From Tubulanus polymorphus (Eukaryota > Animalia > Nemertea), in the NCBI RefSeq assembly GCF_964204645.1, contig NC_134028.1, forward strand, positions 20,580,345 through 20,644,344: 64,000 nt of DNA. Direction: 5' to 3'. Below, in pieces: positions 2,544-28,528 of this stretch. Position numbers and translations under genes: made by a program. The notes under the pieces are model-generated. The model saw nothing but the letters and a program-made list of their open reading frames with translations, did not search any database and was not told the origin of the DNA. Position 1 is the first letter of the stretch. Every line of letters begins with the position of its first letter.

Positions 2544-2554
2544 TTTTGGAAATG

Positions 2555-8055: not shown

Positions 8056-10329
8056 GTTCGGTTGAATTTGATTCAAGTGTTAAAATGGATTCATTTTCGT
8101 CAAGTTGACTCTTCAGAAGAATTGTGGAACCGGGCGAAGTTTGGTTAATATTTGAATCTACAGTTCATATTAAGTCTTTTACAGGATTTTATTTCTTTGT
8201 GTGGATGAAAAATGTACAACCTCCGTCGTACTTCAAATTTCCAGCAACGACTGTAAACAAATCACACAGCAAAACATGGCAAAAATAATCGAATCGATCC
8301 TGTAAATAGTTGGAATCAAATCTATAGTACAGTGAAGTGCTAATTCCGAGGCCGTTCAGCAACTTCTGTTTAAATATTATTCAGCCCAATGTATATACAA
8401 AACTCGCAAGATTTAATCAAAACAAAATGAAACATTCGTCGGTCGCTTCAACATCACGTTAAATCTCAACACACATCATACAGGTAAGATCATTTACGCA
8501 AAATATCCATGTTCTGGCAAAGTCGGGAACCAGTCTCCTGTTCTGGCTTAGCCGGGAACCAGTCTCCATTTCAATGATCTGATTGCAGTTTTTGGAAACA
8601 ACATGAAATTGATAAGTTTTTTGGTGATTTTTGTGGCGGTTTTCTGGGTTTCAACCGATGCCATATATGAAAGTACACGTAGCAAGGTAAATATATGTCC
8701 ATGATGAGGAAACGCCGTTTGTTAATCGTCGAAGCATTTCGTCAATAATGATCCAATAATCCATCGTAGCTTAACTTATGAACCTAAAGTCTACAAACCT
8801 CATTGGTCCTATGTGCAGTTGATATTCCTCATGGAAAGACGAATTAACAGAAATAACTCTCGGTATCTGAAACAAATCTCTGAATATGGGTTGAAGTATC
8901 CCACCCCAAACGTTAGAATGAAATAGTAGCTGTTGTTTTGGATCTATATTGTGGGTTTTTACGCAATTCAAGACTGGAAAAAGTCGCAATTATTTATAAC
9001 CTCTTAGTTTTCTTATAATAGCGATTATCCGTGTTGTATTTGAAAGGTTCACCAAAGAAAAAGCATTTTCAATTGTGTTTGTTTGATTGGCAGGCATCAT
9101 CTCGTCCTTTCGAATGTTACGGCAAGGCCATATCGGGACCACTGAGCAAATTGAATTGCAAGTCTATCGTCAAACGCGATATCAAGCACCTACCAGGTCG
9201 ACAAGGTGACTCTTCGCCGAGGGTCTTCAATTCTAGAAAGGGCAGCTCGCTGACTAATGATTTCGCAAGAAACAATGTGAAAGATCTAAGAAAAAATTTT
9301 AGATCTTCGAGAACAGGCTTGAAACAAATGAGAAACTAGAAAACTAGAAAATGCCACGGAAATGATGGATAATTCGAGCAACATTCTATCATACTAGAAG
9401 ATCTATGTTCTAATTCTAATTCAGTTCTAGGTTTCGGGTTTCCTTGTTCTATACGATTCAAATTTGTGTCAATTATTTGTTTATAAATGCAAATAGATAA
9501 TTGAAGTCGGCATTATAAATGAATGTAGTGATGTATTTATTTCATTGACGGTTCGCAGTTTGCAGTGCCCCCGGAAACCGGTGGGCAGATGAAACGAGTT
9601 CCCAGTTGTTCCAGACGGTGTCCAATGACCGGGAAAGGTTTTTTCAAGGGAAGCATTACGGGTAAGGGAGTTAGTGGGTCGATATCCTATACCAAAATTG
9701 ACTAGACCAACCAATAAAAGTAAATGGGAGATTTTGAATGAAGCCTGAGGATAATTCCACCAAATCTATATCAATAATTAGCTGGCCAGACCAGGAACAG
9801 AATTTCCGTCACGAAGTATAGCTGTTTAATATAAACTTAGTTTAGTTTCATTCTCTAAATTGCGAGGGATCCTGCCAATGATTACATACGTAAGTATTTG
9901 GACCAGGACGGCATTGAGAATCTTCAACTTTTGACAACACATGAGGACAGCTGATGGCTTAGTTCGGCATACTCAGATATTAAACCAGATCACCAAAGTG
10001 ATACTGATGGGACTTGTTTCCTTGTACCTATCGTTTCGACTCTTAATCATCAGGCCTTTTCTGAATGTAATGAACTTTCTCCAAATATCCCTATCAGAGA
10101 AGGAAAAAGTTATCATCGGGAAAACTAGGCGTTCGCGCGATCACTATCGTTATTTGGGAGATAAAGGCATAGGTTGTACATTAATTTAGTTATTCATCGT
10201 GTCAGTTCCTAAGAAGAAAGATACTCACAGGATAAAGAAATTGAAAGAAAAAACAAAAATGTTACATGATTACAAATGGACCAATACTATAATCACACAA
10301 TCGATACAAAAAACATAATGGGTTTGTTG

Positions 10330-12315
10330 TTACAAATGAATGAGTTCCTTTTTTGAGTTGTAAGCAGCGCTGTTTGGACGACCGGTTTTAGGGATTAGAT
10401 TCATCCAATAATCTCTACCGTGTCTGCAATAAATAAAAGAGCATGATATATACAGAGACGCTTCCGCGCAATGTGGATACTGGTATAAAAACGTCAGGAT
10501 TATCCGGCTATCAGTTTACTTTTGACGATCATGTTCATATACACTCTGTCCATATCCAGCCGCGAATGGTAAATTATGATCTTTTCCGGGTGGTCTGAAT
10601 CCTCGTTCCTCGGACAACTGTAATTATAATGTGAATTATCATACGTGTGGATTTCGCAATGTGATTTTGATATCGAAATGCAATGCAACATTTCGTGTAC
10701 AAACCTCTTCGGCCATTTCACGAATATGATAACTCTCGAATCCGCAACATCCTCCGATGTACCTCACTCCAAGTTCATAAGCTTTACGGGCATAGTCTCT
10801 ACATTCCCAACGAGTAAGAATGCGTGGTTCCATCGCTGAAAATGAAAAAGCATCTAAATATTACTTATTTCAATATCGAGACGATCCAATTGTTATTTCA
10901 GCTCACCTAACAAGTACTCGGGTAGTTGAGAATATCCTTCAACTAGATACTCAGTTTCAGGAGAAAGGAATCCGATTGGCTGCATCATCAGAAATGGAGA
11001 TAAACCAGCTTCATTCAGGGCATCTTTCATCAATTTCATCGTTTTCAGTTGCGCGTTATAATCAAACTGGCAATTTAAACCCACAATATCGGCCCCTGTG
11101 TGATTGAAAACAAACACCTACGATTATGATTTACTAAACTTTGCACGACATTGAAACATGTTTGAAAAATAACGTATATTAAGAGGGATGTATCTTGAGT
11201 GAAGGCATGATTTTACACCTCGTTTAGCCATTCTAACTGCACACTCTTTTGCACTGATTCCATCCATACACCCAACTGGGCCTATTCTCATCGTACACGC
11301 TATAGGTTTGTTGTATTTCTTCATGACATCAATCGCCCACTCAATCTCTTCGATTGAACAGAAAAACTGGATTCGAAAAATACATGTATACATTCGACAC
11401 TACAGTGTTATGCAAATGTTCGATTTGTTGATAGTGAAATTCCAATGTAAAATACCAATGAATACCATCTTTGTCTTGAATAGTAGAATTTTACCTCCGC
11501 TATAAAGAAATCGACATCCTTTTCTTTGAACACTTGGCATTGCTTTTCGAATTCTGCTTGAACTGCTGCCTTCCCTTTTCCAGCTGTATATGTCGGTGTA
11601 GGCGACAAACCTCCGCAAACTAGTAGATTGTATGATGTGGCAACATTACGTGCAAGATCGCACGCCGCACGGTTTATTTCAGATGTCTAAGATAAATTAT
11701 AGATATGTACATCAATACCTTAGCACTAACCATTCAGTACAATTTGTATGACTGAATAGTTGAATAGAAATACTGAATAGTTGAATAAGAGTGAGATAGA
11801 TAAAGACCACAACCTACGTTATAATTTTTGGCCGACTCACTACATTGAAGCATTCCATCCGTCGCATGAAATGTGAATGCTTGCATTACATCAGCTCCAG
11901 CTCGAGCAAATTCTTTATGTAAACCACTGACTGAAAAATGGCAAATTAATGATTTTTCTTTTATCGGCTAATCCGTTTTGACTTGAAGATAACCCAACGG
12001 TTATTTTAAAGGACATTTTTTCTGGCAGATGCCTCGTAGTTCGTCATTGTTTTAATTCAAAATGATGCCCACAAAACTATAGATTTTGTTGCAGACAGGA
12101 AGGTGTGCTAAAATTGATCGGGTAAAGTTGGGATGTGGGTAGAAATAAGTCAGAAACATGTAAAACCTACCGGCGTCAGGATGTTCTAGAACGCATTCAG
12201 GAGTATACAGCCCAGCAGTCACATATCCTCTTTTTTCGAATGTATTCATGTAACTACCGTCGCCAATGATTATGCGTTTTGCTAATATCTCCAGTATATT
12301 CGGTTTAGCTGCCAT
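10330..12315 (-). CDS. BHMT: Betaine-homocysteine S-methyltransferase-like protein, 8 coding exons
   Basis: Spliced translation gives [44 protein letters not shown] / [18 protein letters not shown] / [11 protein letters not shown] / [11 protein letters not shown] / [22 protein letters not shown] / [12 protein letters not shown]. The Zn-binding NC and GGCC motifs are present. ATG at 12315, TAA at 10332-10330, short GT-AG introns. Confidence 0.93.
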
Positions 12316-14989
12316 ATCTAGTATCTTGCAAATAAAGCCACCTTGAATCGTTTGACGTTTGACAAAAATTTCCAAACTGGTCTATGAATTCTACAGAAAA
12401 CACATTCTACTATTAGGTCAACCATCGTTGTCCCATTTGATGGTTATAGAAATTGATTTCCTTGATATACATGTCACTCGTATATTCTGTTGTTGTTGTT
12501 CTATGAGGTTCCGTCTAGGCAACTTGAATGAGAGTTTTTATGTATATTAAATCATTTACTAGACCGTTGCCATTGAGAAAAAGATATCCCCCAAAGGTTG
12601 CACCAGTTCACGGTGACGAATATCCGCGATATCAAAAGCAGCATGAGATGCTGCCCTTTCTGATGATATCGACGAACACTATCATGTCCATTCAATTTGA
12701 CCATGTATGAAGGTGTTTAAGGTTTTTATGGGTTCATACGAAATTCCTGGATGCTTCGGGGACCTGCTGTTTGAGGGATGAAGTCACAAGGATTCTAGAT
12801 TTTGACAATATGGGCAAAAGCCTTCTTGAGTTGATGATTAGATGATGTGTTTTTGTGATACAAATTGGTGCCATTGTATCTATGCTAATTTAGAACTAAT
12901 TACTGGGGTAATTAATCTATATATCACTGTTAATTCGTTGCTGATTTTAATTTGTCGATCAGATCTTAATCGACTTTCAATTACAATGATTAGAACATTA
13001 AATTAGTTTACCTTCACAGAAGTCGAAAATATGTAATCAGGTAATTTATGCCAGTCGTCAGTGTTTAATTAAGGAGATGTGCTCCTCTCTAACGTCTCGG
13101 GTTTGAGTGACAGATGATCCCGGTATAAAACAATCTGATGCGACATCAATAAATCAGTTCAGCCAATGACTATAGTCATCATCATCACTACCACTGAATT
13201 AGCGGATAATCAGTAAACGCGGGATTAACGGATTACCATTCAATCGATGATGACGGATTACCACTCATAGGATTAAAAGATTACAATGGATTATTACATC
13301 TTTAAAACGATTGTGTTGATTTCAGTAATCTATTTAGTAACGGGTAAGTCTTCATATCTTATCGATAATGACACTAAAGTTATTAAATTATCAGATCAAA
13401 TAATCGACTGCCTTTATCTATCTATGTAATGCGTACGTCCTGAATTTTCTAATTTCATTCAGCCACGTTGTGTGAATGGAATTTGAATCCACTTTCAAAC
13501 GTTAGTGTTCAAATATCTGATATCATATTTCAATAATTTTCTGCGAATGTAGTTCTGATCGATATCAAACACTAAGCTGAAAACATGGGTAGACGTCTGC
13601 TGTGTAGCATTGGGCATGCATTTTTGCAGAGGATAATATATACTCTTAATTTATCGTAAATTGAAATAATTGACTCGAAATAATTGAATAGTATACACAT
13701 CAGTAACATGCGAAATAATTCTCAGGTCAACCAAATATCAAGTTAAAGAGATTATGTTTCATCAAGTTACCAAAGAACTAAAGACTGCATGAATTTGGTC
13801 CGACCACATAGAGGGAGTAGATAGTTTAAATATGCCTCACACACGAATGCCTATCACCACCATTAATCAATTCGTTCTGGTGCTATGTACTAGATGTGGT
13901 GAAAAATAACAAAGCGATGTTGACGTATTGTTGATAGTCCGAAGTGTTTAACGATTTTTCTTTGGTGTCGACTTAAATTCTAGCTGCGGATCAATTCAGT
14001 GTACTCACTATATTCAAAAATTTCATTGCAATTTTGTGCTTATTAAAATAACTGCTGTACATTGTAATTGTAGATGAGGCTACACTGTTTTATGTCGAAA
14101 CGTCCTGCTACAATAGATTTTGCAATGGTCATTATCTTAATAAAACAGCTAAAAGTTCCTATGTTTGTGCTCAAATCTTTTTATCAATATTGTTATACAA
14201 CTCATAGAATGTTGACAGATTACCTGTCATTGTGCCTATATGCAATGTAAACTTTTCGTTAAAAACTTTCGTCAAAAACATTAAATATAGCAATAAAAAG
14301 ATTTTCAATAATTAGTTTCAATAAGTTATTCAATTGCCATATTCTTCAACTCTGAGGGGTGTTTGCTGTGGCTGTTCAGAAGGTTCGAACGGTTTATTAG
14401 CCCTGAAAAAAATAATCTTTGGACTGTTTTCTTTTATTTGCTGTCTAGGCCGCAAATATTTAGTATAGTGCCCTTCTCCCCGGAAAGACAAACGCATGCT
14501 GGTAAAATCGGTTACGTCTCTTTTAAGTTACTGCGGTCGTATACCGATAGAAATGATTTTACACATTTGGTCACTGTGTTCTTTAAGTCAGAATGGAAAA
14601 AGGTATTTTTTCAAGAATGGTGATGTCACCTGGTTATACATTCTATGCATAACATTATAACCGAAACTTCAACGCCCATGGATCTCTTGTTTGAATTACA
14701 ATCGAAAGTTTGTAGAATTTGTCGACTGTAACCGTACTGTAAAACCTTTCATCCTGATAGTAGAGGAGCTTATGTTTTGAATTCTGGGTTGTTATGCATG
14801 GCATGTTACAGCTTGGCATCGCATGTGGGGCTATTCAGTAGACTTAAACATTTTGCCTGAAAAGAGAATGATACGAATATAAATGCCTTTTCAATCTTTT
14901 GCAAACAAAATGGCTGCCATGGCAATGACGGCGATAGTCTTTGATTGGTTCCAGCAGGGAAGTGTGATGAGATCACACTTCCCTGGTTC

Positions 14990-15589
14990 TATTTGAGTAA
15001 TAAATTACCTATTTAGACAGTGGGAAATAAGCCGGAGTTCAAGGCAGTAGTTGCGGTTAGCAGGCGACCTACGTGAATACTTACGTCACACATAAGAGAG
15101 AAGCATAGAAGATAGGTGAGAGTGACGTGGGTGTCTACGTGGGAAAGCTTGTTATAGCAGCAGCCTTGAGCTCTGGAAAGTTGAGTTATAAATTTAGCGC
15201 TCGTGACGTATAACACACGTAGAAATGATTTACATGGCCAGTAGGACTGTAGTAATAGAATAAGACGTCTCTGGCGATGAGGCCAAGCGGTGTGGAAATA
15301 TACGTCACGAGCGAAGGAAGAATAAGTATAAAAAGGGAGGGTTTTAATGCAGTGGGGTCGAAAGCTTGGTCGGTAGAGCTGGGTCGGTTGAGCTAGTGGT
15401 TAGAACTAGAGGGGACGTGCTAGGAAGATTGTAAGAAGAGAGTATAAGAATAAAGATCTGGATCGATAGAAGAAGCTAGTTGTAGTTAATTTATGAGAAG
15501 AACCCCAAGGAACTACGCTGGTGAAACGCAAACAACGCAGGTGGTCAACACACGTCACCCGGACACTGGGACAGAGGACCCCCACAACA
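14990..15589 (+). repeat. 5' LTR
   Basis: Identical to 25132-25731 apart from position 5 (T vs G) on manual comparison. Termini are TA..CA; TATAAAA at 15327 and AATAAA at 15449. Confidence 0.97.
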
Positions 15590-15590
15590 C

Positions 15591-15608
15591 TGGTGGAGAA
15601 TAGCGGCA
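15591..15608 (+). promoter_or_regulatory. Primer-binding site, tRNA-Ala-like
   Basis: TGGTGGAGAAT(A)GCGGCA lies 1 nt after the LTR and is complementary to the ...ATTCTCCACCA 3' end typical of animal tRNA-Ala(AGC). Confidence 0.8.
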
Positions 15609-15636
15609 GAATTCCGGTCTCGCAGCCAAGCTAGTG

Positions 15637-15642
15637 GTGAGT
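15637..15642 (+). promoter_or_regulatory. Predicted major splice donor for the env subgenomic mRNA
   Basis: Consensus G|GTGAGT between the PBS and the gag start. Confidence 0.7.
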
Positions 15643-15686
15643 GACATTATACAAAACTTTGAATCGATTTATAAAAACTCTGGTTT

Positions 15687-16697
15687 ATGTTTTATAACCA
15701 ACCCGTTAAACGAAAAGCACAACTGTTGGGGATGGCAAACGCGGGACAGCAACCGGCCGTGGGACCAGCCAATCCGGCTGTAGGACAAGACGACGACAAT
15801 GATAGCGACGATGAAATAATCATTGTCCCGAAAGGCGTAAGCGGGCTGAAACCAGAACATTTTGACGGAACAAATGATCCGGAACCATGGTTAGACGCAT
15901 TTTTACAATACGTAAAACTCATGGCATGGAGTGACCGTCAGATACTGAGGAGCTTTCCCTTGTTTTTGAGGGGAGAAGCTCGCTCTTGGTATTTAGGTGT
16001 CGATAAAGATAAGAAACGCGTGTGGAATGATTTATTACAAGCGTTTAATCAGCGATATAATAACCCGGATCGAAAAATGCTAAAAACTCACCAGCTGAAA
16101 CACATGCGCATGGTTTCAGGCCAAACAGTAGACAATTTCGCAGACGATGTTAAACGGAGAGCGAATGAATTGGAATTACCCGCGCATGTGACGTTGAGTA
16201 CGTTTATTGACGGTCTCTCCGCGGACATTCGCAAAATCGTTTGGACGCAAATGCCAGAGGATCTGGACAAAGCCATCAAAATGGCTAGTAACGTAGTCCA
16301 GATGTTGAAAATAGATGGCCCTGGTGTTCATCAAGTCGAGACAGCCAACGCGGAGTGGGACGAACTGAAAACAAGAATAAATCAGCTAGAAATTAAACAA
16401 CGAAAGGAGGAGACGATGGCACAGGAAAGTCGGGCTCTTGCGGGAATTCAACGACCGTTTGAAGCGATTACGTACGCGCGAAATGGAGCTACGAACAATA
16501 GACTTCGTTACCCTACGTTTAGAGGTCGATGTTACAGGTGTAACATAATTGGACATATGGCTAGAAATTGCAGGGGGCCAGCAAAATCTACCTTTGCAAC
16601 GGAAAATGGAAACATCATTTGTTATCAATGTGGTTTACCTGGACATATTAGCAGATATTGCCGTCGGAATACGAATCGACAACAGCGGACTAATTAG
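15687..16697 (+). CDS. gag: Gag polyprotein (capsid plus two CCHC zinc knuckles)
   Basis: PEHFDGTNDPEPWL..F / LRGEARSWY retrotransposon capsid motifs and knuckles CYRCNIIGHMARNC and CYQCGLPGHISRYC. Ends in TAG at 16695-16697; alternative ATG in good context at 15732. Confidence 0.95.
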   Translation: MFYNQPVKRKAQLLGMANAGQQPAVGPANPAVGQDDDNDSDDEIIIVPKGVSGLKPEHFDGTNDPEPWLDAFLQYVKLMAWSDRQILRSFPLFLRGEARSWYLGVDKDKKRVWNDLLQAFNQRYNNPDRKMLKTHQLKHMRMVSGQTVDNFADDVKRRANELELPAHVTLSTFIDGLSADIRKIVWTQMPEDLDKAIKMASNVVQMLKIDGPGVHQVETANAEWDELKTRINQLEIKQRKEETMAQESRALAGIQRPFEAITYARNGATNNRLRYPTFRGRCYRCNIIGHMARNCRGPAKSTFATENGNIICYQCGLPGHISRYCRRNTNRQQRTN

Positions 16698-19600
16698 GGC
16701 TGTAGCAAGGATGGCTTAGGGCAGCTGTCCAGAGCTATACAAACAGAGAATGCCCAAGTATTGTATGAGGTAGGATCGGGGATAACGGGGGATAGTGGGC
16801 GCTCACAGACAAAATTGAAATCTCACAAACAAAACTTGACAAAGAAGAAAATTTTGAAAGAAAAACCAAAAGTATTATGCTCTGAGCGCCCACTGTCCTT
16901 AAATTGTGTTATTTTTGATGAACGGATGGATGTTTTGATTGATACAGGAGCAACTCGAAGTGTCATATCATATGAATACTTTTTAAAATTAAGATCCACG
17001 GTATTAGTAACGCCGTTAGAATATGACGGTTATAAATATGCTACGGTAGCTGATGGGGGTACATTAGAAATATTCGGTATTGTTAAATTAAATCTTAAAA
17101 TGGAATCAAGGGTTGTTAAGCAAGAATTTCTGATATTAAGGAAATTGGCTCACCCATGTATTCTAGGCATGGATTTCATTAACAGTCAGGGTGTGGTTAT
17201 TGACACTCCGAGAAAGCTCCTACATCTGTCATCCGGTCACTCAATACCTCTTCACGAGGGGGCAAAGGTACAATTACAAATTTGTATAGTAGCTAACGAT
17301 ACGGTCACAATTCCGCCTGGTACACAGGTGCAGATAAAAGCAAAAATGAAGGGGACGGGAAGAAAGGACGGTGTAGGTTTTGTTCAACAGTCCGCTAGAT
17401 TATGGGATAAATATGGTATTATGGGTGCGGCTAGTATATCTAATATTAAAAGTGGGGTATTACCTGTGCAAGTTTGTAATCCATCAAATTATTCAAAACG
17501 GTTAAAAAAGGGTGCCATTTTAGGAGATGTTACTCTCATCGATTTAGATGCTCCTATCGCAGACGGGTCATATATGACAATTGATAGTGAAGGTATTTCC
17601 ACGCCTCAACCTGAAAATCAAAACGATATATTAGATAGTGTGGAAACGGGAGACATATCGGTACAGCAAAAAGCTGATTTAAAATCATTATTGGAGGAAT
17701 ACAGAGATAGGTTTGCAGAAGGGATATTGGAGTTGGGAACCGCAAAGGGGGTTGAATGCAATATTGAGACTGAAAATGAGGTGCCTATTCGGTCACGACC
17801 ATATCGGGTTCCATTAGCGTTGAGGGATATTTTAGATAAGCAGATTGATGAACTTAAAAAGCAAGGCGTTATTGAAGATTCAAATTCAAATTATAGTTCT
17901 CCCGCACTTTTGGTACCAAAACCAGATGGGTCATATCGATTGTGTATTGATTTTAGGCGATTAAATAAGGTATTAAAATTGCAAACATTACATCCAATAC
18001 CTCATATCTTTGACACCTTAACTATGTGTGGCACCGCTAGGCCAAAAATATTTTCTTCTCTAGATTTAAGAAGTGGTTATTTTCAGATCCCGATTTCACA
18101 AGAGTCTCGTCACAAAACGGCGTTCGTAACGCCTACTGGTCATTACCAATTTACTAGATTACCCATGGGCATAGCATCGGCCCCTAGTATTTTTCAATCC
18201 ATTATGGCTCGCCTCTTACATTCATTAGGGGACTCTGTTTTGGTTTATTTAGATGACCTTTTAGTATTTTCTACGTGTTGGGAGGATCACTTACAACATT
18301 TACGCCAACTTTTTGAAAGATTACGGGTGGCGGGGTTGACACTTAAACCCAGCAAATGTTTTATTGCTCGACCAAACTGTAAGTTTTTGGGTTTCTATTT
18401 AGACGGGGATGGCATTAGAACTAATCCCGAGAAAGTAAATGTGATTCGAAACTGCCCTGTGCCTACAAATCAAACTCAAGTTCGGTCTTTCCTAGGGGCT
18501 GCTAATTTCTATAGAAAATTCATTAAGAACTTTTCGGGGCGGGCACGACCATTGACACTATTGACGAGAAAGGGTATACCATTTCTATGGTCTGACGATT
18601 GTCAGAAAGCGTTTGATGACTTGAAACAGGCACTTATAACAGCACCCGTGTTAGCATATCCTTCTCTGAAACGCAAGTTCAAGGTTCACTGCGACGCATC
18701 AAATTTTGCGATGGGATATTGTCTTGTACAGGAAGGAGACGACGGTCAAGAACACGTAATTGCATACGGTGGACGAGCACTAACAAAACAAGAACAAGCA
18801 TATTCCGCTAGTGAGCGGGAGTGTCTGGCGCTCATTTCAGCCATTAAGTATTATAAAGTATACCTGTATGGAAATCCTTTTACGGTGGTCACAGATCATA
18901 AAGCACTGTTGTGGTTAAAAAAGATGGAGGTCGATGGTCTCGCCTCAGGTCGGCTACAACGGTGGTGCATCTTCCTACAAGGATACCAATATGACGTTGA
19001 GTATCGGGCAGGAGTACAACATGCAGATGCGGATTTCTTGTCTAGATTAAGGTATCCGGAAATAGTGGCTGTTGACACAGGTAACGACGATATCTTGGTG
19101 AATTTGCCTATGGAACAACGTAAAGATAATGAGTTACGACCTATCATTGATTACCTATTAGACGGATCATTACCAAAAAATGATCGTTTGGCACGACGAA
19201 TAATCTTGTCGCACGAAAGGTATATTCTGGACAACAAGGATAGTCTTCAATACTTGCAACATTTAAATCGCCGCCAATCTGCTCACTTCTCTCCTTGCTA
19301 TGTGATACCAAAACAACTTCGCTTACAAATCCTGCAAGAAACACATGAGGTTTTTGGAGGACACAGTGGCATCAAGTCAACGTATATGCGTCTGAAAAAT
19401 AGGTATTATTGGAATGGTATGTTTAACGATGTAAAGGATTTCTGCTTACGATGTAATGTCTGTCAACGGAAAGGGTTGTCTGCAAAAGAGGCTACTAAGG
19501 TTCCAATGCAAACGGTACGGGTGGAGCCAATTTTCCATAAATTTGCTATGGATATGGTGGGTCCCTTTCCGGTGTCTGACAAGGGGCATAAATATGTGTT

Positions 19601-20765
19601 GACATGTATTGAAACTTTTTCATCATATATGGAGGCATTTCCGCTTAAGACGGCATCGGCAGAAGAGGTCGCCGAAAGGTTGGTGGATGGTATCATTTTG
19701 AGATATGGGATGTTTTCTACTATACTTACCGACAATGGGTCAAACTTTATCTCAAAAGTCTTTCAACGAACGGCCATCCTCTTGGGGGGTAGAACAAAAA
19801 CTACGTCCTCATATCATCCGCAGGCGAATGGTGCTTTAGAAGTACAACATAGACAATTAAACAAATCAATAGCTAAGTTATTAGATGGACAAAGCCCGGG
19901 AAAGTGGGACTTATATCTGCAATCTGCGGTATTCGCAATGAATTCCTCAAATAATATCAATTCGACGTCATTCACGCCTTTTGAAATTGTTTTTGGGCGG
20001 ATGCCTAAATTGCCCATGGAACTAGCCATATCAGCTCCAAAAAATGAATATGGGTCTCATGTGGCCTATTTTCAACACTTAATTAAGAAGATGGATATAG
20101 TACATGACATAGTTCGTAAGAATCGGGAACTGAGCAAAATAAAAATGAAGCAGCAGTACGATAAAAATGCTAAAGATATTCAGTTTGAAGTGGGGAGTAA
20201 GGTTTTTCTTTATTACCCACACTTGCCTACTGGGGCATCAAAGAAATTACATTCATTTTGGCTGGGCCCATATGAAATTATTGAAAAAATAGGAGAAGTT
20301 AATTACAGATTGAGAACGGATGATAATCGAAAGGTTAAAACATTAGTTCATGTAAATAGGTTGCGTCCGGTTTATGAATCTAAAAAACCGCCTACTTACG
20401 ACTTACCGCAGACTATTGAAAAATTAGATGACTTACCAGGGAACCTCGCCATGGATGAAATCGTTTTGCCCCATAAGAGTCGCCATGTCAAAATCGGCAT
20501 GACGCCCGCAATTGAACCTCCTACTTTGACGCAGAGGGACATGACGTTATCGAAGGGTCGCGAAAATATTGACGGGAAAGACGAGTCGATATACACTGTG
20601 TCTCGAATACTCAAACATAGAAGACGGGGAGGCAGGTTGTATTATTATGTCGCCTGGGAGGGTTATGCGGATAAGACTTGGGAACCGGAGGAGAATTTCT
20701 TGGATAGGTCGATCTTGACGGCATATCATCAGAAAGCCAAGAAAAGACGGAAACGACGTGCATAG
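16698..20765 (+). CDS. pol: Pol: aspartic protease, RT, RNase H, integrase with GPY/F motif and chromodomain
   Basis: LIDTGA (16941), YLDD (18246), HCDASN, HHCC plus D,D,E integrase core, WLGPYEI, and C-terminal YTVSRILKHRRRGGRLYYYVAWEGYADKTWEPEENF. The frame is open from the codon after the gag TAG. Confidence 0.97.
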   Translation, partial: GCSKDGLGQLSRAIQTENAQVLYEVGSGITGDSGRSQTKLKSHKQNLTKKKILKEKPKVLCSERPLSLNCVIFDERMDVLIDTGATRSVISYEYFLKLRSTVLVTPLEYDGYKYATVADGGTLEIFGIVKLNLKMESRVVKQEFLILRKLAHPCILGMDFINSQGVVIDTPRKLLHLSSGHSIPLHEGAKVQLQICIVANDTVTIPPGTQVQIKAKMKGTGRKDGVGFVQQSARLWDKYGIMGAASISNIKSGVLPVQVCNPSNYSKRLKKGAILGDVTLIDLDAPIADGSYMTIDSEGISTPQPENQNDILDSVETGDISVQQKADLKSLLEEYRDRFAEGILELGTAKGVECNIETENEVPIRSRPYRVPLALRDILDKQIDELKKQGVIEDSNSNYSSPALLVPKPDGSYRLCIDFRRLNKVLKLQTLHPIPHIFDTLTMCGTARPKIFSSLDLRSGYFQIPISQESRHKTAFVTPTGHYQFTRLPMGIASAPSIFQSIMARLLHSLGDSVLVYLDDLLVFSTCWEDHLQHLRQLFERLRVAGLTLKPSKCFIARPNCKFLGFYLDGDGIRTNPEKVNVIRNCPVPTNQTQVRSFLGAANFYRKFIKNFSGRARPLTLLTRKGIPFLWSDDCQKAFDDLKQALITAPVLAYPSLKRKFKVHCDASNFAMGYCLVQEGDDGQEHVIAYGGRALTKQEQAYSASERECLALISAIKYYKVYLYGNPFTVVTDHKALLWLKKMEVDGLASGRLQRWCIFLQGYQYDVEYRAGVQHADADFLSRLRYPEIVAVDTGNDDILVNLPMEQRKDNELRPIIDYLLDGSLPKNDRLARRIILSHERYILDNKDSLQYLQHLNRRQSAHFSPCYVIPKQLRLQILQETHEVFGGHSGIKSTYMRLKNRYYWNGMFNDVKDFCLRCNVCQRKGLSAKEATKVPMQTVRVEPIFHKFAMDMVGPFPVSDKGHKYVLTCIETFSSYMEAFPLKTASAEEVAERLVDGIILRYGMFSTILTDNGSNFISKVFQRTAILLGGRTKTTSSYHPQANGALEVQHRQLNKSIAKLLDGQSPGKWDLYLQSAVFAMNSSNNINSTSFTPFEIVFGRMPKLPMELAISAPKNEYGSHVAYFQHLIKKMDIVHDIVRKNRELSKIKMKQQYDKNAKDIQFEVGSKVFLYYPHLPTGASKKLHSFWLGPYEIIEKIGEVNYRLRTDDNRKVKTLVHVNRLRPVYESKKPPTYDLPQTIEKLDDLPGNLAMDEIVLPHKSRHVKIGMTPAIEPPTLTQRDMTLSKGRENIDGKDESIYTVSRILKHRRRGGRLYYYVAWEGYADKTWEPEENFLDRSILTAYHQKAKKRRKRRA

Positions 20766-20905
20766 GATATTTGCCACGCACCCAACAGTTGTTGCGAAAT
20801 TAATTAAGGATAATAGGAGAAATGAGTATGAGTATAAAGTTGCTGTGTTTTAAGAAATTGTTAGGAAATCAAGAAGTTATGATTTAAAATGTTGTTTTAG
20901 GAACC

Positions 20906-22738
20906 ATGGTTCGGAGTATAGTTCATATCGTTATGATTTGGTCGTGGATAGGACCAATGGCTGCATGGAATGCAGAGCTACGGATGGGGGCTGGAGTAGT
21001 GTTCCAGCCAGTTGACGAGATAAATGTAGCAGCAACAAAATGGGAACATAGTGTTATGATTCCTTTAGTAGATGTTTCCCGGTTTTCGATGACAATTCCT
21101 AATATGACGTGTGGAATGCCCAATGCCGAATGCCGACAAATAGAGAAAATGTTTCGCCTAATGCGTTTGCGTAAAATCCGAGCTGATCAAAAATTTAACA
21201 GTTCCAGGCGTATGATTGAATCATTATTACCTGTTGAAATTCCGAGTACAAGAAGAGAAGGCCGTATGAAACGAACACCACTATCATTCATCGGAGATGT
21301 CGCCAGTTTGATTTTTGGGGTCGCCACTACTGAGCAGTTACAAATAGTGGAAAGACATATGAATAAGTTTGATGCATTACAAAAATTAGATCATAAAGCT
21401 ATTGTCCAGTTACAAGAACGGTTAACTAGCTTTGCCAACGTAACAGATTCTAGATTTAAGTTAGTCAAGTCTCTAGTACGACAAAACAGAGATTATATGT
21501 CAAAACTTTCGGAATTCGTTGTAAATAATACTATGAATCAGGCTCGTATACAGGCAAGGGTACATGCACTATCATACGTAGTGCGGTATTCCATTAATTA
21601 TGGGGATGTTATTGAGGCTATCAGCAGCCACATGGCCGCGTGGTTGCGCTCCACTAACGTTTTACTATCAAATAGACTACCTGTGGAGTTAATTCCGGTA
21701 ACAAGTCTCCAGGAAATCTTATCAAAAATTCGCGTTACATTGAAGAATTTTTACCCCATGTTTGAGCTGGCACATCAAACCCCGAGTTATTATTATTCGC
21801 ACGCGCGAACGTTTACTGTCAGGACTCGTGAATATATAGTGGTTCATATGCAGATCCCAATACAAGCAAAAAATACGCATTTTCGTTTGTATAATATATT
21901 ATCTTTTCACCTTCCGGTTAATGCAACCGCTACGGTGTATACAAAAATAATTAACCTCCCACGCTTCTTTGGCGTTAGTAAGAATTTGCAAACTTACGTG
22001 TTGATTGATGAAGCCACTTATTCGCTTTGCCAAGGACGTTATATACAGAATTGTGCAGATGGATTACCTATCTATACTCGAACACAAAAATCATGCGCGT
22101 CTGCACTTTTCTTTGATAATCCTAAGGATCTAATTGGGCAGTGTGATCTGACATATACTTCCGTGGCGCCTCTGTCTCAGGCGGTCCTGTTGACAACCAA
22201 TAAATATTTGATATCCATTCACGACAAGCGAGATGATTGGATTTCCCAATGTGGACTGGATCCACCAATTAGGGTTCCGGTCTGTGATTTTTGTGTTGTC
22301 ACCTTGCAATGTCATTGTGGGTTGAATTCGAAATACTTTACGCTTTCGCCGACTTTAACAAATTGTGAAAAAGGTCATGATAGAATAACTCGATTATATC
22401 CCGTTAACATACCGGCGGCATTACTTTTGGGTAAAGAGGATGATATTGATAATATGCAAACAGAGGTATTATATTCTAAAATTCCGCGTATCACACTGCC
22501 TGATTTTAATATAGAAGGACATGAATGGGATAATGTGATACGGGCTGAAAACGCTAAGGAAGCTGATTTTAAAAAATTGGCGCAGGCTATAAGCCGTGAC
22601 AAGATAGCGTATACAAGTAGGTCCGATTATTTACGGTCAGAAATTAGGGGGACACATAGTTCTTTGAAAATCGGTGGTTATATTCTGATTTCGTTAGTAA
22701 TTGTGGCAATAATAGTATCGACTCTTCGCCACAAATAG
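20906..22738 (+). CDS. env: Envelope glycoprotein, class I fusion protein (F-protein/errantivirus Env-like)
   Basis: Hydrophobic signal peptide, furin site RMKR (21263-21274) followed by fusion peptide TPLSFIGDVASLIFGVAT, heptad region, Cys-rich ectodomain with NxS/T sites, and C-terminal TM IGGYILISLVIVAIIVSTL. Acceptor ttgttttag lies 5 nt before the ATG. Confidence 0.9.
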   Translation: MVRSIVHIVMIWSWIGPMAAWNAELRMGAGVVFQPVDEINVAATKWEHSVMIPLVDVSRFSMTIPNMTCGMPNAECRQIEKMFRLMRLRKIRADQKFNSSRRMIESLLPVEIPSTRREGRMKRTPLSFIGDVASLIFGVATTEQLQIVERHMNKFDALQKLDHKAIVQLQERLTSFANVTDSRFKLVKSLVRQNRDYMSKLSEFVVNNTMNQARIQARVHALSYVVRYSINYGDVIEAISSHMAAWLRSTNVLLSNRLPVELIPVTSLQEILSKIRVTLKNFYPMFELAHQTPSYYYSHARTFTVRTREYIVVHMQIPIQAKNTHFRLYNILSFHLPVNATATVYTKIINLPRFFGVSKNLQTYVLIDEATYSLCQGRYIQNCADGLPIYTRTQKSCASALFFDNPKDLIGQCDLTYTSVAPLSQAVLLTTNKYLISIHDKRDDWISQCGLDPPIRVPVCDFCVVTLQCHCGLNSKYFTLSPTLTNCEKGHDRITRLYPVNIPAALLLGKEDDIDNMQTEVLYSKIPRITLPDFNIEGHEWDNVIRAENAKEADFKKLAQAISRDKIAYTSRSDYLRSEIRGTHSSLKIGGYILISLVIVAIIVSTLRHK

Positions 22739-23248
22739 CAGTACATGTTATCCCTGCCTAGACTACGGATGAATTTGCTTTCTGAGGCAATGGGTGGGGA
22801 CTAGCGGCTGACATCTCGGCGATTCGGGTGTATCTGATCAGTATATCCATTTTTGCATAAATTTCGGCTCATCTTTATAAAATGTACTTAGAAAATTATT
22901 ATGGAATTATTCATTAATTGTTGAAGCTGTCTGTTGCCAACATGTGCTGGGCACACGATAATCAACTAAATGATGTACTTGGCATCAGTATTAATTTACG
23001 TCGTTGATTGGAGTCGGGACAGGTTGGACAAACCATCTTAAACGGTTAAAGATCGAGGCGGTCAGTGTATGGAAAGGGAGAGGAACATAATAAAAAAGGG
23101 AAACTTTCGGTGTATACTGTTTTAATAATGCTTACTTCCAAAAAAAAGGGGAAGAGAAGTTGGTGGTTTTGTATCTAACTAAATTTGTATTATCATACTA
23201 AATGTGGTATAAAAAGAAACGAACTCCAGTGAGTGTAAATAGATCTGG

Positions 23249-24820
23249 TCATTCTTCTCGTTCTGAAATATAGGATTTGTATTTGCATGAGTTTTTTTTT
23301 AATTCCCATATGGTTCATATTGTAATTTCTCGGACTGAAATACGAATTTGTTATATTTGCTTGTATATTTTATAAAATTCTTACCGGGTTCGCTGTCACT
23401 GGAATTTGTAGGTGAAGGAGGTGGGAAGTAGCTAGCCAGCGACGGCAGGGAGCTGGAGGTGCTGCTTGCAGAAGGGCTAGCAGGGGTATCAGGGATGTGA
23501 AGGATCGGATATCGGGAATGGGGAATCAGGTACAGGAGGGGAATCGGGAACTCCAAGTGATAGGAGGGGGTGCTGAGAAAGGTCGAGAAAAGGAGTTGAG
23601 TTGGGAGAAGAGGTACTGGGGGATGGGGACATGCGGTTATAGGGTGGAGGTTGTGGCCCCAGACCGGGGGGCGAGGGGTCCACGCTCTGGTCTGTGGGCG
23701 CGTTAGTACGACGGGAATAGGGATGCATGCGGAGGGTGCCGCCGCTTGGTTGCCCCCTTCCCGTGCCCCTTTGCCGCGCCGTATGTTGCCCTCGTGTTGA
23801 GGATGGGGTGGATGGAACTGGGAGCCCTGCGTAAATAGACAATATATATAGAGGTAACATGTGGAATTGTGTTCGTGGCGTTGCCATAGTATAATTATTA
23901 GCATTAGAACATATAACTAATGGTATACGCAATGAATAAATAAATACGTATGAACTATGGTTGTAAAGAGGGATATATATAATGTATACCTGAAAACGCG
24001 GCGCGTAAGTCGTCGGTGGCAGCCCGAATTATGTTTAATAATTGTTGTCGGTTGCCTGCGTTGCAAAAGTATATTAGAAAAAGCAGTTATAAATTGTTTT
24101 TTTTGGTACATAAAATGAATTAAGAAGTCTTACCGGGCTGTGCTAGAATAAAGCCATACAGCATGTGTAGGACCAGTGAGGCTGATATGAAAAACAAAAT
24201 ATGACAGGATGAGATATATATGTTGTTAATTTTGAGGTTTCTAATTTTATATACTTCATGCTTTGAAGCACGGTATTAGTACGTTGCCGTACAGTACCTT
24301 GGAAGTGCTGATTAAAAAAAAAAAAAAAAAAACAAAGAAAGAAAAAAAAAAGGGATTGTATATATAAAAGTATTGTTGCATAATATAATACAACGGTAAT
24401 GAAATGGACTGAAGTGCAATTAACGTTTTTACAATTAGTAATTATAGTTACATGACTAACATTGTTAAATTTCAGGGTTTTTCTGGTATTATATTGTTCA
24501 CATTTTTAGGAATAGCGCATGGGGTAATAGATCTTATCAGGGGCGATGTGACCGTTTAAAATAACAAAGTGCAAGAGTGGCGCATAATGTATTATCGCAT
24601 GTAATGATAAAACTGTACAAAATGGTTGGTGTGTTAGTTTATAAGTATTCAAAATAAGTTGCTTACCGAAAAAAAAAACTCTATCGGGTCCATTGTGAAT
24701 GATAATCCGGATGGTAATGAGGGTTTAGTCTTTATGGCGGATGGAAGTAGAATGTTTCAGAGATGGGGATTTTACTCAGTATCAAGGGTGACTTTTTGGC
24801 CAGGTGTACTGTTATTGTTG
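23249..24820 (-). CDS. Putative spliced antisense accessory gene of the LTR element (exons 24820-24667, 24307-24255, 24181-24134, 24055-23990, 23826-23385, 23262-)
   Basis: Alternating canonical minus-strand acceptors (pyrimidine tract plus CAG) and donors (GTAAG x3, GTATA x2); ATG in strong context at 24693; frames stay open across the junctions. The true reading frame is uncertain. Confidence 0.6.
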
Positions 24821-25117
24821 CTGGTCAGAAAAGAAATAATGGGTTTTTTTTTCTCTCTCTACCATCCAGATGTTGAAAATTTATGTGCGTCAGTTGCAAG
24901 ATTGTTGTATCATTTATCATAAAGCACCATTTTTATTGCCTTACGGTGAAGTTCAAGGGGTGAAAGTTGTTAAAAAAGAAAAACAAAAAAGAAAAAGTTG
25001 TTTATGGAAGTAAGGGGTACTGATTTTGCACTATTGCTAGCTACGGCTCTTAAAAAAATCTCTGGAAGTGCAAACGGGCTTCAGTATTTTTTTTGGCGAT
25101 TGGGGGTCCAATCGTCT

Positions 25118-25131
25118 GGAAAGGGGGATGG
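25118..25131 (+). promoter_or_regulatory. Polypurine tract
   Basis: GGAAAGGGGGATGG immediately before the 3' LTR. Confidence 0.9.
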
Positions 25132-25731
25132 TATTGGAGTAATAAATTACCTATTTAGACAGTGGGAAATAAGCCGGAGTTCAAGGCAGTAGTTGCGGTT
25201 AGCAGGCGACCTACGTGAATACTTACGTCACACATAAGAGAGAAGCATAGAAGATAGGTGAGAGTGACGTGGGTGTCTACGTGGGAAAGCTTGTTATAGC
25301 AGCAGCCTTGAGCTCTGGAAAGTTGAGTTATAAATTTAGCGCTCGTGACGTATAACACACGTAGAAATGATTTACATGGCCAGTAGGACTGTAGTAATAG
25401 AATAAGACGTCTCTGGCGATGAGGCCAAGCGGTGTGGAAATATACGTCACGAGCGAAGGAAGAATAAGTATAAAAAGGGAGGGTTTTAATGCAGTGGGGT
25501 CGAAAGCTTGGTCGGTAGAGCTGGGTCGGTTGAGCTAGTGGTTAGAACTAGAGGGGACGTGCTAGGAAGATTGTAAGAAGAGAGTATAAGAATAAAGATC
25601 TGGATCGATAGAAGAAGCTAGTTGTAGTTAATTTATGAGAAGAACCCCAAGGAACTACGCTGGTGAAACGCAAACAACGCAGGTGGTCAACACACGTCAC
25701 CCGGACACTGGGACAGAGGACCCCCACAACA
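25132..25731 (+). repeat. 3' LTR
   Basis: Direct repeat of 14990-15589 at offset 10142, followed by TSD GTTC. Confidence 0.97.
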
Positions 25732-26766
25732 GTTCCAGTCACTATCTTAGGTAGGTCCACTTGCCACTGGTGCTAGTGTAACACGATTCATTCTTGATAT
25801 GAGAAAGTTACTTTGAGAGAGGAACTCTGTTTCCATAAAAAAAAACTTTCTAAACATGGTAACTCCAGACTCTTCGTTTCCCGTGTTTAAGAGAGGATAT
25901 TTTGGTATCGTACGGGTGATTTAAATTTAGGTTATATTCAAAATACACCAAATTATGTGAAGAAGATGTTATAGAAAAATTGTTTAAACCTGTGAGGCAA
26001 ATCAAATATGTAACTATATTTGCCGAAAAGACACACACAAAATGAGAAAATCAAAGATTTTGCAGTCGCCATGGCAATAAATCTCAACAAATGCAGATTT
26101 TTCCGAGAAAATCTGATACCGTGTAAAGTTTACTTCAATTTCCGACAATAAGATACCACACATATATCATGTGAATTCCAAAATCTAGCCCCAATGACCA
26201 TATGGTCACTTTTTTGGAATATGGACATAAAACAGTTGCCATGGCAGTGACGGTAACAATGAATATTGGGCATCGGTCATTCTCATGTCCAGGGAAGTCT
26301 ACTTAACAGCCCCACGTGCCAGGCTGTAACATGCTATGCATAACAATTTACACAAGCTCCTCTTCTTTGATTAAGAATAGGACATATCTAACATATTTTG
26401 TAGCCACAAGGTGTTGACTCAACATTCTCACTGTCACTTGTACTAAATGATGAATGGACTAAAGGAGCATCTCAAAATTTTAATCGTCTCGTCAATTAGA
26501 ATAACTTTATTAAATCTCTCTTACCCCACACTTTGATTAGACACGTGCCGAAGTTGGAACTATTGATTTTCTAATTGAGAGGCCACAGACAAAGTTAAGT
26601 TCTCGTGACTGTATTTTGATCGCAACTGTCATTGAAAATACAATAGGAAAATTACATATGAACCCTATTAATCTAATAGGTTTTAACAAATAGGCCTCGT
26701 AACGAGCGCATGGTTTCTCGAACTTATATCTTTTTGATTAATGTCGTACGAATCCTAGATTATTAT

Positions 26767-27527: not shown

Positions 27528-28528
27528 CTACCGGTCTACCCGACACGCCTGGCATCGTGTGAAACTACGGAATCTATCATCGGTAGAAATAAGGATGAAA
27601 AAATTACCGACTGAATTGAAAACCGTTGTAGTGAGAGCGAATTGATAAAACATTGCTCGCAATCTATAATCGCGTATTACAAAACCGTTTATTTCAAAAA
27701 GTCGCGGCATTGTGGCCGGGATTTCGCAAATTAGAAAGAAAGTGACGAGCGCAACGACATTTCTGAGAGCGCGGATATCGATGACATTGTTGCGGGCGAC
27801 GGAATCACTTCGACGAAGAGACCGTCGAGCTGTGGTCGCACGATATAAAACAAACATTAACAGAAAATTGACAACTATCAAAAAACAAGTAGGGAATATT
27901 GACGTTATGAACATGTAAACATAATTGGTGTAATTTGTGATGAGTTTTGTGAGAAAATCAGTATATTTGAAGAGTGTATAACCGCTGAACTGGGTATGAA
28001 CACGAATATCTAATCTAAGACAAGGCAAGTGATAAAGTCCTGGGAATGAGCCTTGTATGATATAATGCCAGTTTGCCAACGCGCTTAAGGTAACCACACA
28101 AATCATCATTGATAGTAGTTTTCTTTGTGTCCAAAATCGTACCGCTCGCAACGGAAATGAAATCACCACTAGCCGATCAACACTGAGCAAAACAACCGAC
28201 CAATTCCTCGATGTCTCTAACCAGAGAAACATATATGAAAATATGAACAAAATCCAACCCCCGAATTTGAGCGCGTAAAAACGAAACATGACGTCACCCA
28301 TAATCGCGTAAACGTACAACGCCCGAATCGGGTACAAAAACGCGAACGAAACGAGAAACGATAAATCAAAACAAGCTACGAATTTGCATACGTAGTATGA
28401 TTTTCGTTTCAAACGTTCGATCGTAACGATAGTACAATCGCATGGACGTAAAACGTATCGATGTAAACTTTTCGTATCGGTGAAGTTTTTACGCACGACA
28501 CGTCAGATGAATTCGTAACAGACGTCAT
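27528..28528 (-). pseudogene. Intronless class A GPCR (FMRFamide/peptide-receptor-like), apparently disrupted in TM1
   Basis: TM2-TM7 motifs: VACFDLSFL, LSVDRLVVISFPL, IFPTCFLIVVN, FFLICEIP, NSVGNFFIL. The long ORF has only a GTG start; the ATG with MTSVTNSS (28528) is in another frame. Confidence 0.7.

Follow-up and report, generated by a model that had tools for sequence, protein, structure and literature searches.

A recently inserted, env-truncated chromodomain Ty3/gypsy element of Tubulanus polymorphus and its likely antisense gene

Organization of the element

The element occupies 10,742 bp (positions 14990..25731) of the window, that is, the whole 64,000-nucleotide stretch of Tubulanus polymorphus contig NC_134028.1 that was analyzed. 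It is bounded by two plus-strand long terminal repeats (LTRs) of 600 nt each (5' LTR, 14990..15589; 3' LTR, 25132..25731), which start with TA rather than TG, end with CA, and are identical at 599 of 600 bases, the sole mismatch being at LTR position 5. The 5' LTR contains 10 ACGT cores, where about 2 would be expected in 600 nt. A 4-bp target-site duplication, GTTC, lies on both sides (14986..14989 on the left and 25732..25735 on the right). The internal region begins with a primer-binding site (PBS) of the tRNA-Ala type (15591..15602, plus strand), whose 12 nt are complementary to CCA together with 9 nt of a tRNA-Ala end given in supplementary file 1 of PMC13524379, and it ends with a polypurine tract (PPT; 25118..25131, plus strand), through which 32 reads link it to an LTR. 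Immediately to the left is a perfect 31-bp palindrome (14955..14985) that is a high-copy host repeat, with a read depth of about 307 compared with about 6 in the bin of flanking sequence at 13775-14229; a 7-bp direct repeat flanks the palindrome, and the element was inserted in its right-hand copy. The overall layout is not chimeric, as independent contigs span LTR-PBS-gag and integrase-chromodomain-env.

The gag frame is open from 15675 to 16697 on the plus strand and, read from its second ATG (15732..16697; another in-frame ATG is at 15687), encodes 321 residues with a capsid and two CCHC knuckles, ending at a TAG (16695-16697). In frame with this stop follows pol (16698..20765, plus strand), an open frame of 1355 codons encoding protease (DTG), reverse transcriptase (RT; YLDD), RNase H, a "mini" bridge, integrase (HHCC, D-D-E, GPY) and, at the integrase C terminus, a chromodomain as in chromoviruses (20592..20735, plus strand; Pfam PF00385, E 2.2e-9, above the curated cutoff). 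The earlier note, made from the DNA letters alone, had described the single LTR mismatch, the duplication, PBS and PPT, the in-frame gag-UAG-pol junction, open gag and pol, and a chromodomain integrase, and all of these were borne out.

The LTRs, PBS, PPT, and the order protease-RT-RNase H-integrase place the element in Ty3/gypsy (Metaviridae). In the structure model the bridge behind RNase H consists of helices (173-217) and then strands (218-220, 226-231, and 240-245), matching the "mini" domain, helices followed by three small strands, of section 7 of PMC13524379; RNase H is thus followed by a mini domain, as in the "ancient errantiviruses," and not by the pseudo-RNase H bridge of insect errantiviruses (gypsy, ZAM, Idefix). 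The best relatives in a Pol search were 30 to 44% identical, none close enough to lend a family name, and the best RT identity, 49%, was to an unnamed protein. In a tree of 122 RT pieces, which included no named references, the partner was an unnamed chromodomain-bearing Pol (support 0.81). An Env-like region was present in 1 of the 135 Pol-type proteins tested (P0034).

The third frame, env (20906..22738, plus strand; 610 residues), encodes a class I F-type protein, as judged by profile and fold matches. Env alone matched no Pfam family and no PDB sequence, while its profile matched the PDB fusion proteins 9w4d and 9w4c (E 1.6e-20 and 7.1e-19, respectively), and its structure model (pLDDT 88) matched the fold of pneumovirus F and baculovirus F-type proteins. 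Its order, with motifs read off the translation, is a signal-like N terminus, a basic furin-type site, a hydrophobic peptide, the ectodomain, a 19-residue hydrophobic stretch, and the stop. F-type errantiviruses (Chary and Hayashi) are recognized by a third frame coding for a class I F-type glycoprotein that has a signal peptide, a furin site, a fusion peptide, and a membrane segment, and by this token the element is one of them. No env-related loci were found in viral contigs, and none of the pattern hits in metagenome contigs (590) or prokaryote genome contigs (31) was confirmed.

The env splice signals of the earlier note were found again in the sequence: a likely major donor for an env mRNA, GTG/GTGAGT (15637..15642, plus strand), and two acceptor-like sites (20846..20900, plus strand; ending at 20864 and 20900) upstream of the env ATG, both of which scored below a 5.5-bit threshold with generic splice-site weights. 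The novelty that the earlier note saw in the combination of env with a chromodomain did not last. We rejected it, since F-env Ty3/gypsy elements with chromodomains, from cnidarians, molluscs, and annelids, are described by Chary and Hayashi (eLife 2026, PMC13524379), who place chromodomain errantiviruses basal to chromoviruses.

The gag-pol junction and the region behind env

Downstream of the gag TAG, starting 11 nt past it, we predicted an H-type pseudoknot (16709..16755, plus strand) with a stem of 7 bp, a loop of 3, a stem of 5 bp, and a loop of 20. By criteria set post hoc, such a structure was seen in 1 of 1000 shuffles and in 1 of 493 windows of gag-pol-env. Plain folding of the junction gave no unusual stability (z -0.31). 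The pol frame has no ATG until just before the protease DTG. The window copy has an in-frame stop with a predicted pseudoknot behind it, and Pol is likely made by readthrough of the gag UAG with the aid of that structure. Alternatively, the TAG could be a nonsense mutation, private to this copy, that interrupts a fused gag-pol frame, or be spliced out, with no readthrough at all. The stop is known from the window copy, with 40 of the 1439 differences to other copies listed, and the unremarkable folding would suit such a reading; we nevertheless consider it unlikely, given the well-formed predicted structure at the spacing known from murine leukemia virus (MLV) and the fact that a stop between gag and pol is an established Ty3/gypsy strategy (bioRxiv 2022.12.06.519325).

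Between env and the 3' LTR, the minus strand carries a chain of candidate exons, for which the 3' LTR is the candidate promoter. The putative first intron (25116..25226) would have its donor (25226) inside the 3' LTR and its acceptor (25116) in the reversed PPT. That acceptor may be a by-product of the PPT. Next come an exon with a likely start codon at 24693 (24667..24820), a predicted 9-nt micro-exon (24134..24142), a predicted 66-nt exon encoding a predicted amphipathic helix (23990..24055), a long predicted exon rich in Pro, Ser, and Thr with a PPPY motif (23385..23826), and a candidate last exon (23303..23334) with a short coding end, a stop, and an ATTAAA signal. Further minus-strand acceptors end at 24308 and 24182, their donors being uncertain, and an alternative acceptor for the last exon ends at 23263. 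The predicted product is a short helix with a Pro/Ser-rich tail bearing PPPY. In the window copy the chain is out of phase near 24670, in the first of these exons, and out of frame near 23520, in the long one.

The region held five minus-strand GTAAG donors versus 0.78 expected, a number reached in none of 200 shuffles that kept the dinucleotide content; a mild GTAAG excess was also seen on the minus strand of gag-pol-env (14 of 200 shuffles). Acceptors, five against 3.2 expected, showed no significant excess (46 of 200 shuffles). Other copies were informative, the comparison resting on the 40 of 207 substitutions and 12 of 26 indels that were listed. At the two phase breaks the length differed, in 14 of 34 reads at one and 27 of 47 at the other, and likewise in the X1 contigs, and these length variants restore a single phase across all the coding antisense exons. 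The other 10 of the 12 listed indels sit in predicted introns or the leader or cancel out, as do the only two listed in the 66-nt exon. Among the listed substitutions in the long exon that distinguish subfamilies, five of six were synonymous in the predicted frames, compared with at most four of six in other minus-strand combinations and three of six on the plus strand; the six probably stem from one or two haplotypes. Counting all 10 listed substitutions of this exon, five were synonymous, and the four private to the window copy were all nonsynonymous; the division into six and four was made by read share after the effects had been seen.

A multi-exon antisense gene, frameshifted in the window copy, is therefore likely to lie between env and the 3' LTR, as judged from the donor excess, the common phase of the exons, the tendency of indels to fall outside them, and the mostly synonymous between-subfamily changes. 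Two possible RNA runs gave no reads over 22560-25140, a result that carries no information on expression. The open frames themselves prove little, since C-rich DNA has few stops, and a second frame is also open over the entire 442-nt long exon. The antisense chain of the earlier note stands in part: its donors exceed chance and other copies support it, while its acceptors are at chance level and its frame is broken twice.

It is also conceivable, though improbable in our estimate, that this is an ordinary F-env errantivirus with a noncoding region behind env, in which a G/A-rich plus strand and its cis-acting tracts produce the minus-strand splice signals and frames incidentally. The plus-strand G skew there is strong (0.24 to 0.29), and the reversed PPT at 25116, acceptor counts no higher than in shuffles, the ease with which C-rich DNA yields open frames, and a weak search of proteins of 178 to 2000 residues, in which the Pro-rich piece had no homologue, would all agree with it. 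Base composition, however, did not yield five donors in any of the 200 shuffles that preserved dinucleotides, nor would it lead length variants of other copies to agree with a single exon phase at either break and to spare exons elsewhere, or confine the synonymous bias to the predicted antisense frames.

Damage to the window copy

Although open, env is shortened by an internal deletion whose break point lies at 22720..22721, as judged from reads and contigs. Forty-three reads continue past 22720 into other sequence, the depth just to the left being about 32; three contigs, drawn from two samples, likewise carry on for 90, 467, and 218 nt; and other subfamilies rejoin the window sequence at 22719-22728. 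The membrane segment is kept and the tail is lost, so that Env is without the second membrane segment and C-terminal domain found in most homologues. From the membrane segment onward, 100 of 150 Env homologues have at least 150 residues, and the window Env has 25; 41 of the 150 end within 60 residues past the segment, some being fragments and some apparently ending so by nature. A tail surviving in another frame of the element was sought and rejected, there being no trace in any frame (best E 1.5).

The element had been called intact and possibly infectious. With env internally deleted and the antisense chain out of frame at two places, the first description fails, although gag and pol are open throughout, and the second does not suit a copy whose Env is without the C-terminal region of its family. 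Recent activity is supported, both by the near identity of the LTRs and by several near-identical copies in other samples. The element is a recent, though damaged, representative of a known virus-like kind of jumping gene of invertebrates.

That the copy is truly full-length, with the deletion and both frameshifts being assembly errors, is very unlikely. None of the listed reads or contigs bridges 22720-22721 in the window form, and one of the breaks sits in a homopolymer run. At scattered single bases, however, the window copy departs from almost every sampled read, which points to another individual or a private copy; two letters at the env break could belong to either side, a feature of template-switch deletions; and long clean deletions are not typical of assembly error. 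Least credible of all is a real antisense gene that is a captured or decaying fragment of a host gene with no role for the element, for while micro-exons and short introns resemble a cellular gene and a double break in a very recently transposed copy implies that the gene is not needed in cis, it is common to diverged subfamilies from two studies, with mostly silent differences, and the search of proteins of 178 to 2000 residues found no cellular homologue.

Proposed biology and comparison with known systems

Taken as a whole, the locus is probably a recent insertion, truncated in env, of an F-env chromodomain Ty3/gypsy element whose family likely uses pseudoknot-aided UAG readthrough and carries a spliced antisense accessory gene. 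The 5' LTR would give rise to genomic RNA, translated into Gag and by readthrough Gag-Pol, and to a spliced env RNA, and the chromodomain would direct integration. From the 3' LTR would come an antisense RNA, spliced through the same-phase exons and encoding about 200 residues, a short helix and a long disordered Pro/Ser-rich part with PPPY. We propose that the antisense introns persist because the packaged sense RNA presents the spliceosome with only their reverse complement. With gag and pol open, the window copy probably still copies itself inside cells, although its Env tail and its antisense frame are gone.

Our tentative first choice for the antisense protein, at somewhat short of an even chance, is a regulatory adaptor tuning the element's own expression, like HBZ in HTLV-1; this is suggested by analogy and by the ACGT cores in the LTR. 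A Nedd4/ESCRT budding adaptor is the second choice and rather doubtful. It is possible, if not quite probable, that the family independently reached the plan of complex retroviruses, with a spliced F-type Env bearing budding signals in its tail, MLV-type readthrough, chromodomain targeting, and a multi-exon antisense regulator driven from the 3' LTR, and that the spacers behind env in other ancient errantiviruses hide more such genes.

Two features are undescribed in the literature searched, the likely pseudoknot after the gag UAG and the likely multi-exon antisense gene. If the latter is real, accessory genes are not exclusive to vertebrate retroviruses, and annotation based on open reading frames overlooks such genes, their exons being tiny and on the opposite strand. 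In addition, the family allows copies that retain the Env tail and the antisense frame to be compared with natural copies that do not, among them a copy that transposed very recently, and this bears on how elements shift from infectious to intracellular life. Env-bearing Ty3/gypsy elements have been treated as simple three-gene viruses; a survey of 1512 is silent on antisense and accessory genes, and its main text makes no mention of splicing, readthrough, frameshift, or pseudoknot (PMC13524379).

The element resembles the chromodomain-bearing ancient errantiviruses of that survey in its gag-pol-env order, F-type Env with furin site, chromodomain, RNase H with mini domain, tRNA-Ala-type PBS (shared with several of theirs), and LTR spacing (about 10 to 11.6 kb), and it differs from them in its shortened Env (PMC13524379).

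In MLV, readthrough depends on a UAG and a pseudoknot at similar spacing, and the junction described here is likely MLV-like, its pseudoknot being predicted. Pseudoknot readthrough in errantiviruses was not described in the openly accessible literature searched; a survey of gag-pol recoding signals by Gao et al. in 2003 may already list UAG-pseudoknot cases. An in-frame stop also separates gag and pol in Tj1, Tosmo, and Tcry1 of fission yeasts, the Tj1 type using UGA with a short sequence context, unlike the UAG and predicted pseudoknot found here (bioRxiv 2022.12.06.519325).

Likewise, the openly accessible literature searched contained no description of an antisense gene in animal Gypsy elements that bear env. 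Complex retroviruses, HTLV-1 among them, provide the best-known examples of an antisense gene next to env; in HTLV-1, HBZ is spliced and placed between env and the 3' LTR. Antisense extra frames are reported in plant and fungal Ty3/gypsy elements (Grande gene 23, RIRE2, Retand TRP28, and Boty brtn), and, like the candidate gene of Tubulanus, they lie in the 3' internal region with a proposed regulatory role (PMC11963269, PMC7264820). Their elements, however, have no env in the published descriptions, and the frames lie between pol and the 3' LTR, whereas the Tubulanus candidate stands behind a true fusogen in an animal element, has several small predicted exons, and matches no known domain. 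HBZ is driven from the 3' LTR (PMC11963269). The candidate gene is like HBZ and APH-2 of deltaretroviruses in its place between env and the 3' LTR and in the LTR rich in ACGT (CRE-like) cores; it differs from them in having no bZIP or sequence likeness and in belonging to an element whose Pol is of the Ty3/gypsy and not the retroviral type.

Layout and copies of the element

The Ty3/gypsy element on the plus strand at 14990-25731 comprises LTRs, GTTC target duplications at both ends, a primer site (PBS), a polypurine tract (PPT), gag, pol and env. When compared with each other, the two 600-nt LTRs differed by 1 base; the PBS lies 1 base 3' of the 5' LTR and the PPT directly 5' of the 3' LTR. 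The PBS is a 12-nt match to a tRNA-Ala end listed in supplementary file 1 of PMC13524379, which assigns that end, in the entries available, to polychaete and sipunculid elements. Ten ACGT cores occur in the LTR, where about 2 would be expected.

Four DNA data sets (at most 3 samples from 2 studies) were mapped to 11500-25125. Contigs covered LTR-PBS-gag and integrase-chromodomain-env, the latter with 4 differences over 3179 nt. One contig had an LTR end joined to another flank. Since independent contigs span it and 32 reads connect the internal region to the LTR across the PPT, the overall layout is real and not an assembly chimera. The earlier note had claimed an intact, possibly infectious element with an undescribed combination of modules; its layout was confirmed, whereas neither the intactness nor the novelty of the headline combination stood. 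Read depth was about 50-80 on gag-pol-env, 25-30 3' of env and 6 in the least-covered flank bin, and copies number roughly 4 to 10, a loose figure, as the flank is possibly diverged in that sample.

Both LTRs start with TA instead of the usual TG (14990-14993 and 25132-25135), and one contig has a further, different start. A 31-bp perfect palindrome stands 4 bp left of the element (region 14948-14989, 25732-25738). It belongs to a high-copy repeat whose centre varies (read depth about 307 versus about 6) and is present once within the window. Flanked by a 7-bp direct repeat, it resembles a MITE of minimal size together with its target duplication, and it is into this duplication that the element is inserted. 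Between 14000 and 26000, a plus-strand GC skew of 0.07-0.29 was limited to the element, and among the differences listed, G>A and A>G were about twice as frequent as C>T and T>C. Elsewhere in the window, an intronless rhodopsin-family GPCR-like ORF (27528-28502, minus strand) lies 1.8 kb from the 3' LTR, its Pfam 7tm_1 match (E 2.5e-5) being under the cut-off. Three copies of a 1.3-kb repeat unit (1469-4132, 62394-63996), inverted arms enclosing arrays of a 20-bp subrepeat (4134-8718) and a pair of 149-bp inverted repeats 1.7 kb apart (38741-40708) are probably DNA transposons.

Env and its missing tail

The third ORF (20906-22738), of 610 codons, has a good ATG immediately 3' of an acceptor-like site, and a candidate splice donor lies just 3' of the PBS. 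Env alone had no match in Pfam, nor by sequence in the PDB. With an E limit of 0.001, it has 1605 relatives, 150 of them listed; a profile built from 95 of these matched the solved fusion proteins 9w4d (E 1.6e-20) and 9w4c (E 7.1e-19), and a structure model (pLDDT 88) matched the pneumovirus F and baculovirus-type F folds. By profile and modelled fold, the protein belongs to the F-type fusogens.

Counted from the membrane segment to the C-terminus, 100 of the 150 listed relatives have at least 150 residues, 9 have between 60 and 149, and the other 41 have less than 60; the window copy has 25. The closest relative among those listed (49% identical, 838 aa) can be aligned up to the membrane segment and then continues for about 230 residues. 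When 685 frame pieces of the element were searched with a profile of the homologue tails, no match emerged (best E 1.5). The missing tail is explained by the reads: 43 continue into other sequence past 22720, where depth immediately to the left is about 32, three contigs likewise diverge there for 90, 467 and 218 nt, and several subfamilies re-align with the window at 22719-22728. Therefore, the window copy carries an internal env deletion at 22720/22721, which removed the second membrane segment and the C-terminal domain, and it is not intact. An assembly error could produce the same picture, as none of the records listed bridges 22720/22721 in the window form, but the scattered private substitutions of the window copy suggest another individual or a private copy.

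In the 94 long homologues among P0001 and P0122-P0270 (handles of Env homologues), the C-terminal 80 residues are enriched in the late-domain-like motifs P(S/T)AP (11/94; shuffles 0.3), (L/M)YPxL (18/94; 0.2) and PPxY (7/94; 1.3). No such motif was found in Gag of the element, and the budding signals of its family may, judging from these tails, be carried on Env. A second hydrophobic segment is present in most of these homologues, as is a conserved C-terminal domain (held-out test E 4e-11); for the F-type Env, the text of PMC13524379 available discusses the ectodomain only. Just 3' of env, depth rises about sixfold at 22728-22817 and 22913-23038. Both blocks are common to other, more abundant families with genes too diverged to map and are candidates for conserved cis-acting RNA elements.

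The gag-pol junction and the candidate antisense exon chain

Gag, with a capsid and two zinc knuckles, ends in TAG. In frame with it follows pol, which is open for 1355 codons and encodes protease, RT, RNase H, integrase and a chromodomain scoring above the Pfam cut-off. Since the first ATG in pol comes only just before the protease active site, a Gag-Pol fusion is needed. A well-formed pseudoknot of the H type, with stems of 7 and 5 bp followed by loops of 3 and 20 nt, respectively, is predicted 11 bases 3' of the TAG; its score was equalled in 1/1000 shuffles and 1/493 gag-pol-env windows, by criteria chosen after the structure was seen. Plain folding of the junction gave nothing special (z -0.31). 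The 40 sample-versus-window differences listed, out of 1439, do not bear on the gag TAG in other copies. In MLV, the gag-pol signal is a stop codon with a downstream pseudoknot, an arrangement similar to the one predicted here. Pol is quite probably made by readthrough of the TAG.

On the minus strand of 23040-25131, between env and the 3' LTR, 5 GTAAG donors were found against 0.78 expected (0/200 dinucleotide shuffles), and on the plus strand 2 against 3.9; the gag-pol-env minus strand had a milder excess (14/200 shuffles). Minus-strand acceptors in 23040-25131 were within chance (46/200 shuffles). The candidate coding exons, all on the minus strand, are an exon at 24820-24667 with its ATG at 24693, a 9-nt micro-exon (24142-24134), a 66-nt exon with a predicted amphipathic helix (24055-23990), a long Pro/Ser/Thr-rich exon with PPPY (23826-23385), the first 101 residues of which hold no lysine, and a short last exon starting at 23334 and followed by ATTAAA. 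Exons around 24308 and 24182 and a transcript start in the 3' LTR with a donor at 25226 are uncertain. The internal junctions are compatible with phase 1.

In the window copy, the chain is out of phase near 24670 and near 23520. Other copies vary in length at both points (27/47 and 14/34 reads, respectively, and the X1 contigs too), in the direction that keeps all junctions in one phase. The remaining 10 of the 12 indels listed (26 in all) either map to the predicted introns or the leader, or offset one another over three bases of the helix exon. Ten of the 40 substitutions listed (207 in total) are in the long exon. Six of these distinguish subfamilies, and 5/6 are silent in the predicted frames, compared with at most 4/6 in other minus-strand combinations and 3/6 on the plus strand, the split by read share having been made after the effects were seen and the six coming from few haplotypes. 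The four window-private substitutions are all non-synonymous. A search with the Pro-rich piece among proteins 178-2000 residues long found no homologue. The antisense exons reported in the earlier note are supported by the donors, the phase-restoring indels and the silent changes, but not by the acceptors or the two phase breaks; on sequence evidence, the chain is likely a real coding gene.

Proposed expression and known elements

Sense RNA from the 5' LTR would give Gag, Gag-Pol by readthrough and Env by splicing, and antisense RNA from the 3' LTR a mostly disordered protein of about 200 residues. Antisense introns are invisible to splicing in packaged sense RNA, and those of the element would outlast retrotransposition because that RNA holds only their reverse complement. 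For this protein we tentatively favor, at somewhat below even chances, a role as a regulatory adaptor that would control how the element itself is expressed, given a position like that of HBZ, the antisense gene of HTLV-1, the ACGT cores and the regulatory roles proposed for plant antisense ORFs in the part of PMC11963269 available. The second, less probable candidate is a Nedd4/ESCRT budding adaptor, suggested by the PPPY of the protein and the motif-free Gag, though Env tails of the family apparently have late-domain motifs of their own. Because the LTRs of the window copy are nearly identical, its three lesions were probably inherited from a damaged parent still able to copy itself inside cells.

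Chary & Hayashi (PMC13524379) catalogued 1512 env-bearing Ty3/gypsy elements; the sections and supplementary files available describe a clade with a chromodomain from cnidarians, molluscs and annelids and mark at least 18 entries as chromodomain bearing, including F-env, Ala-primed coral elements, so that env with a chromodomain had already been described. The bridge 3' of RNase H is predicted to have the fold of their 'mini' domain and, by the testable features, the element is a member of the ancient F-type errantiviruses described there and works like them. The main text available does not mention antisense, splicing, readthrough, frameshift, pseudoknot or accessory. Ty3/gypsy elements with an in-frame stop between the two genes gag and pol are well documented, Tj1 being one of them (bioRxiv 2022.12.06.519325). 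Antisense extra genes are described in plant Grande, RIRE2 and Retand and fungal Boty (PMC11963269, PMC7264820), and none in an env-bearing animal element was found in the available portions of papers on rotifer, Oikopleura and tubeworm elements (PMC5408684, PMC4402516, PMC8220671). Two likely features of this invertebrate Ty3/gypsy family had no earlier description in the literature covered: a spliced antisense gene 3' of a true fusogen and a readthrough signal of the MLV type.
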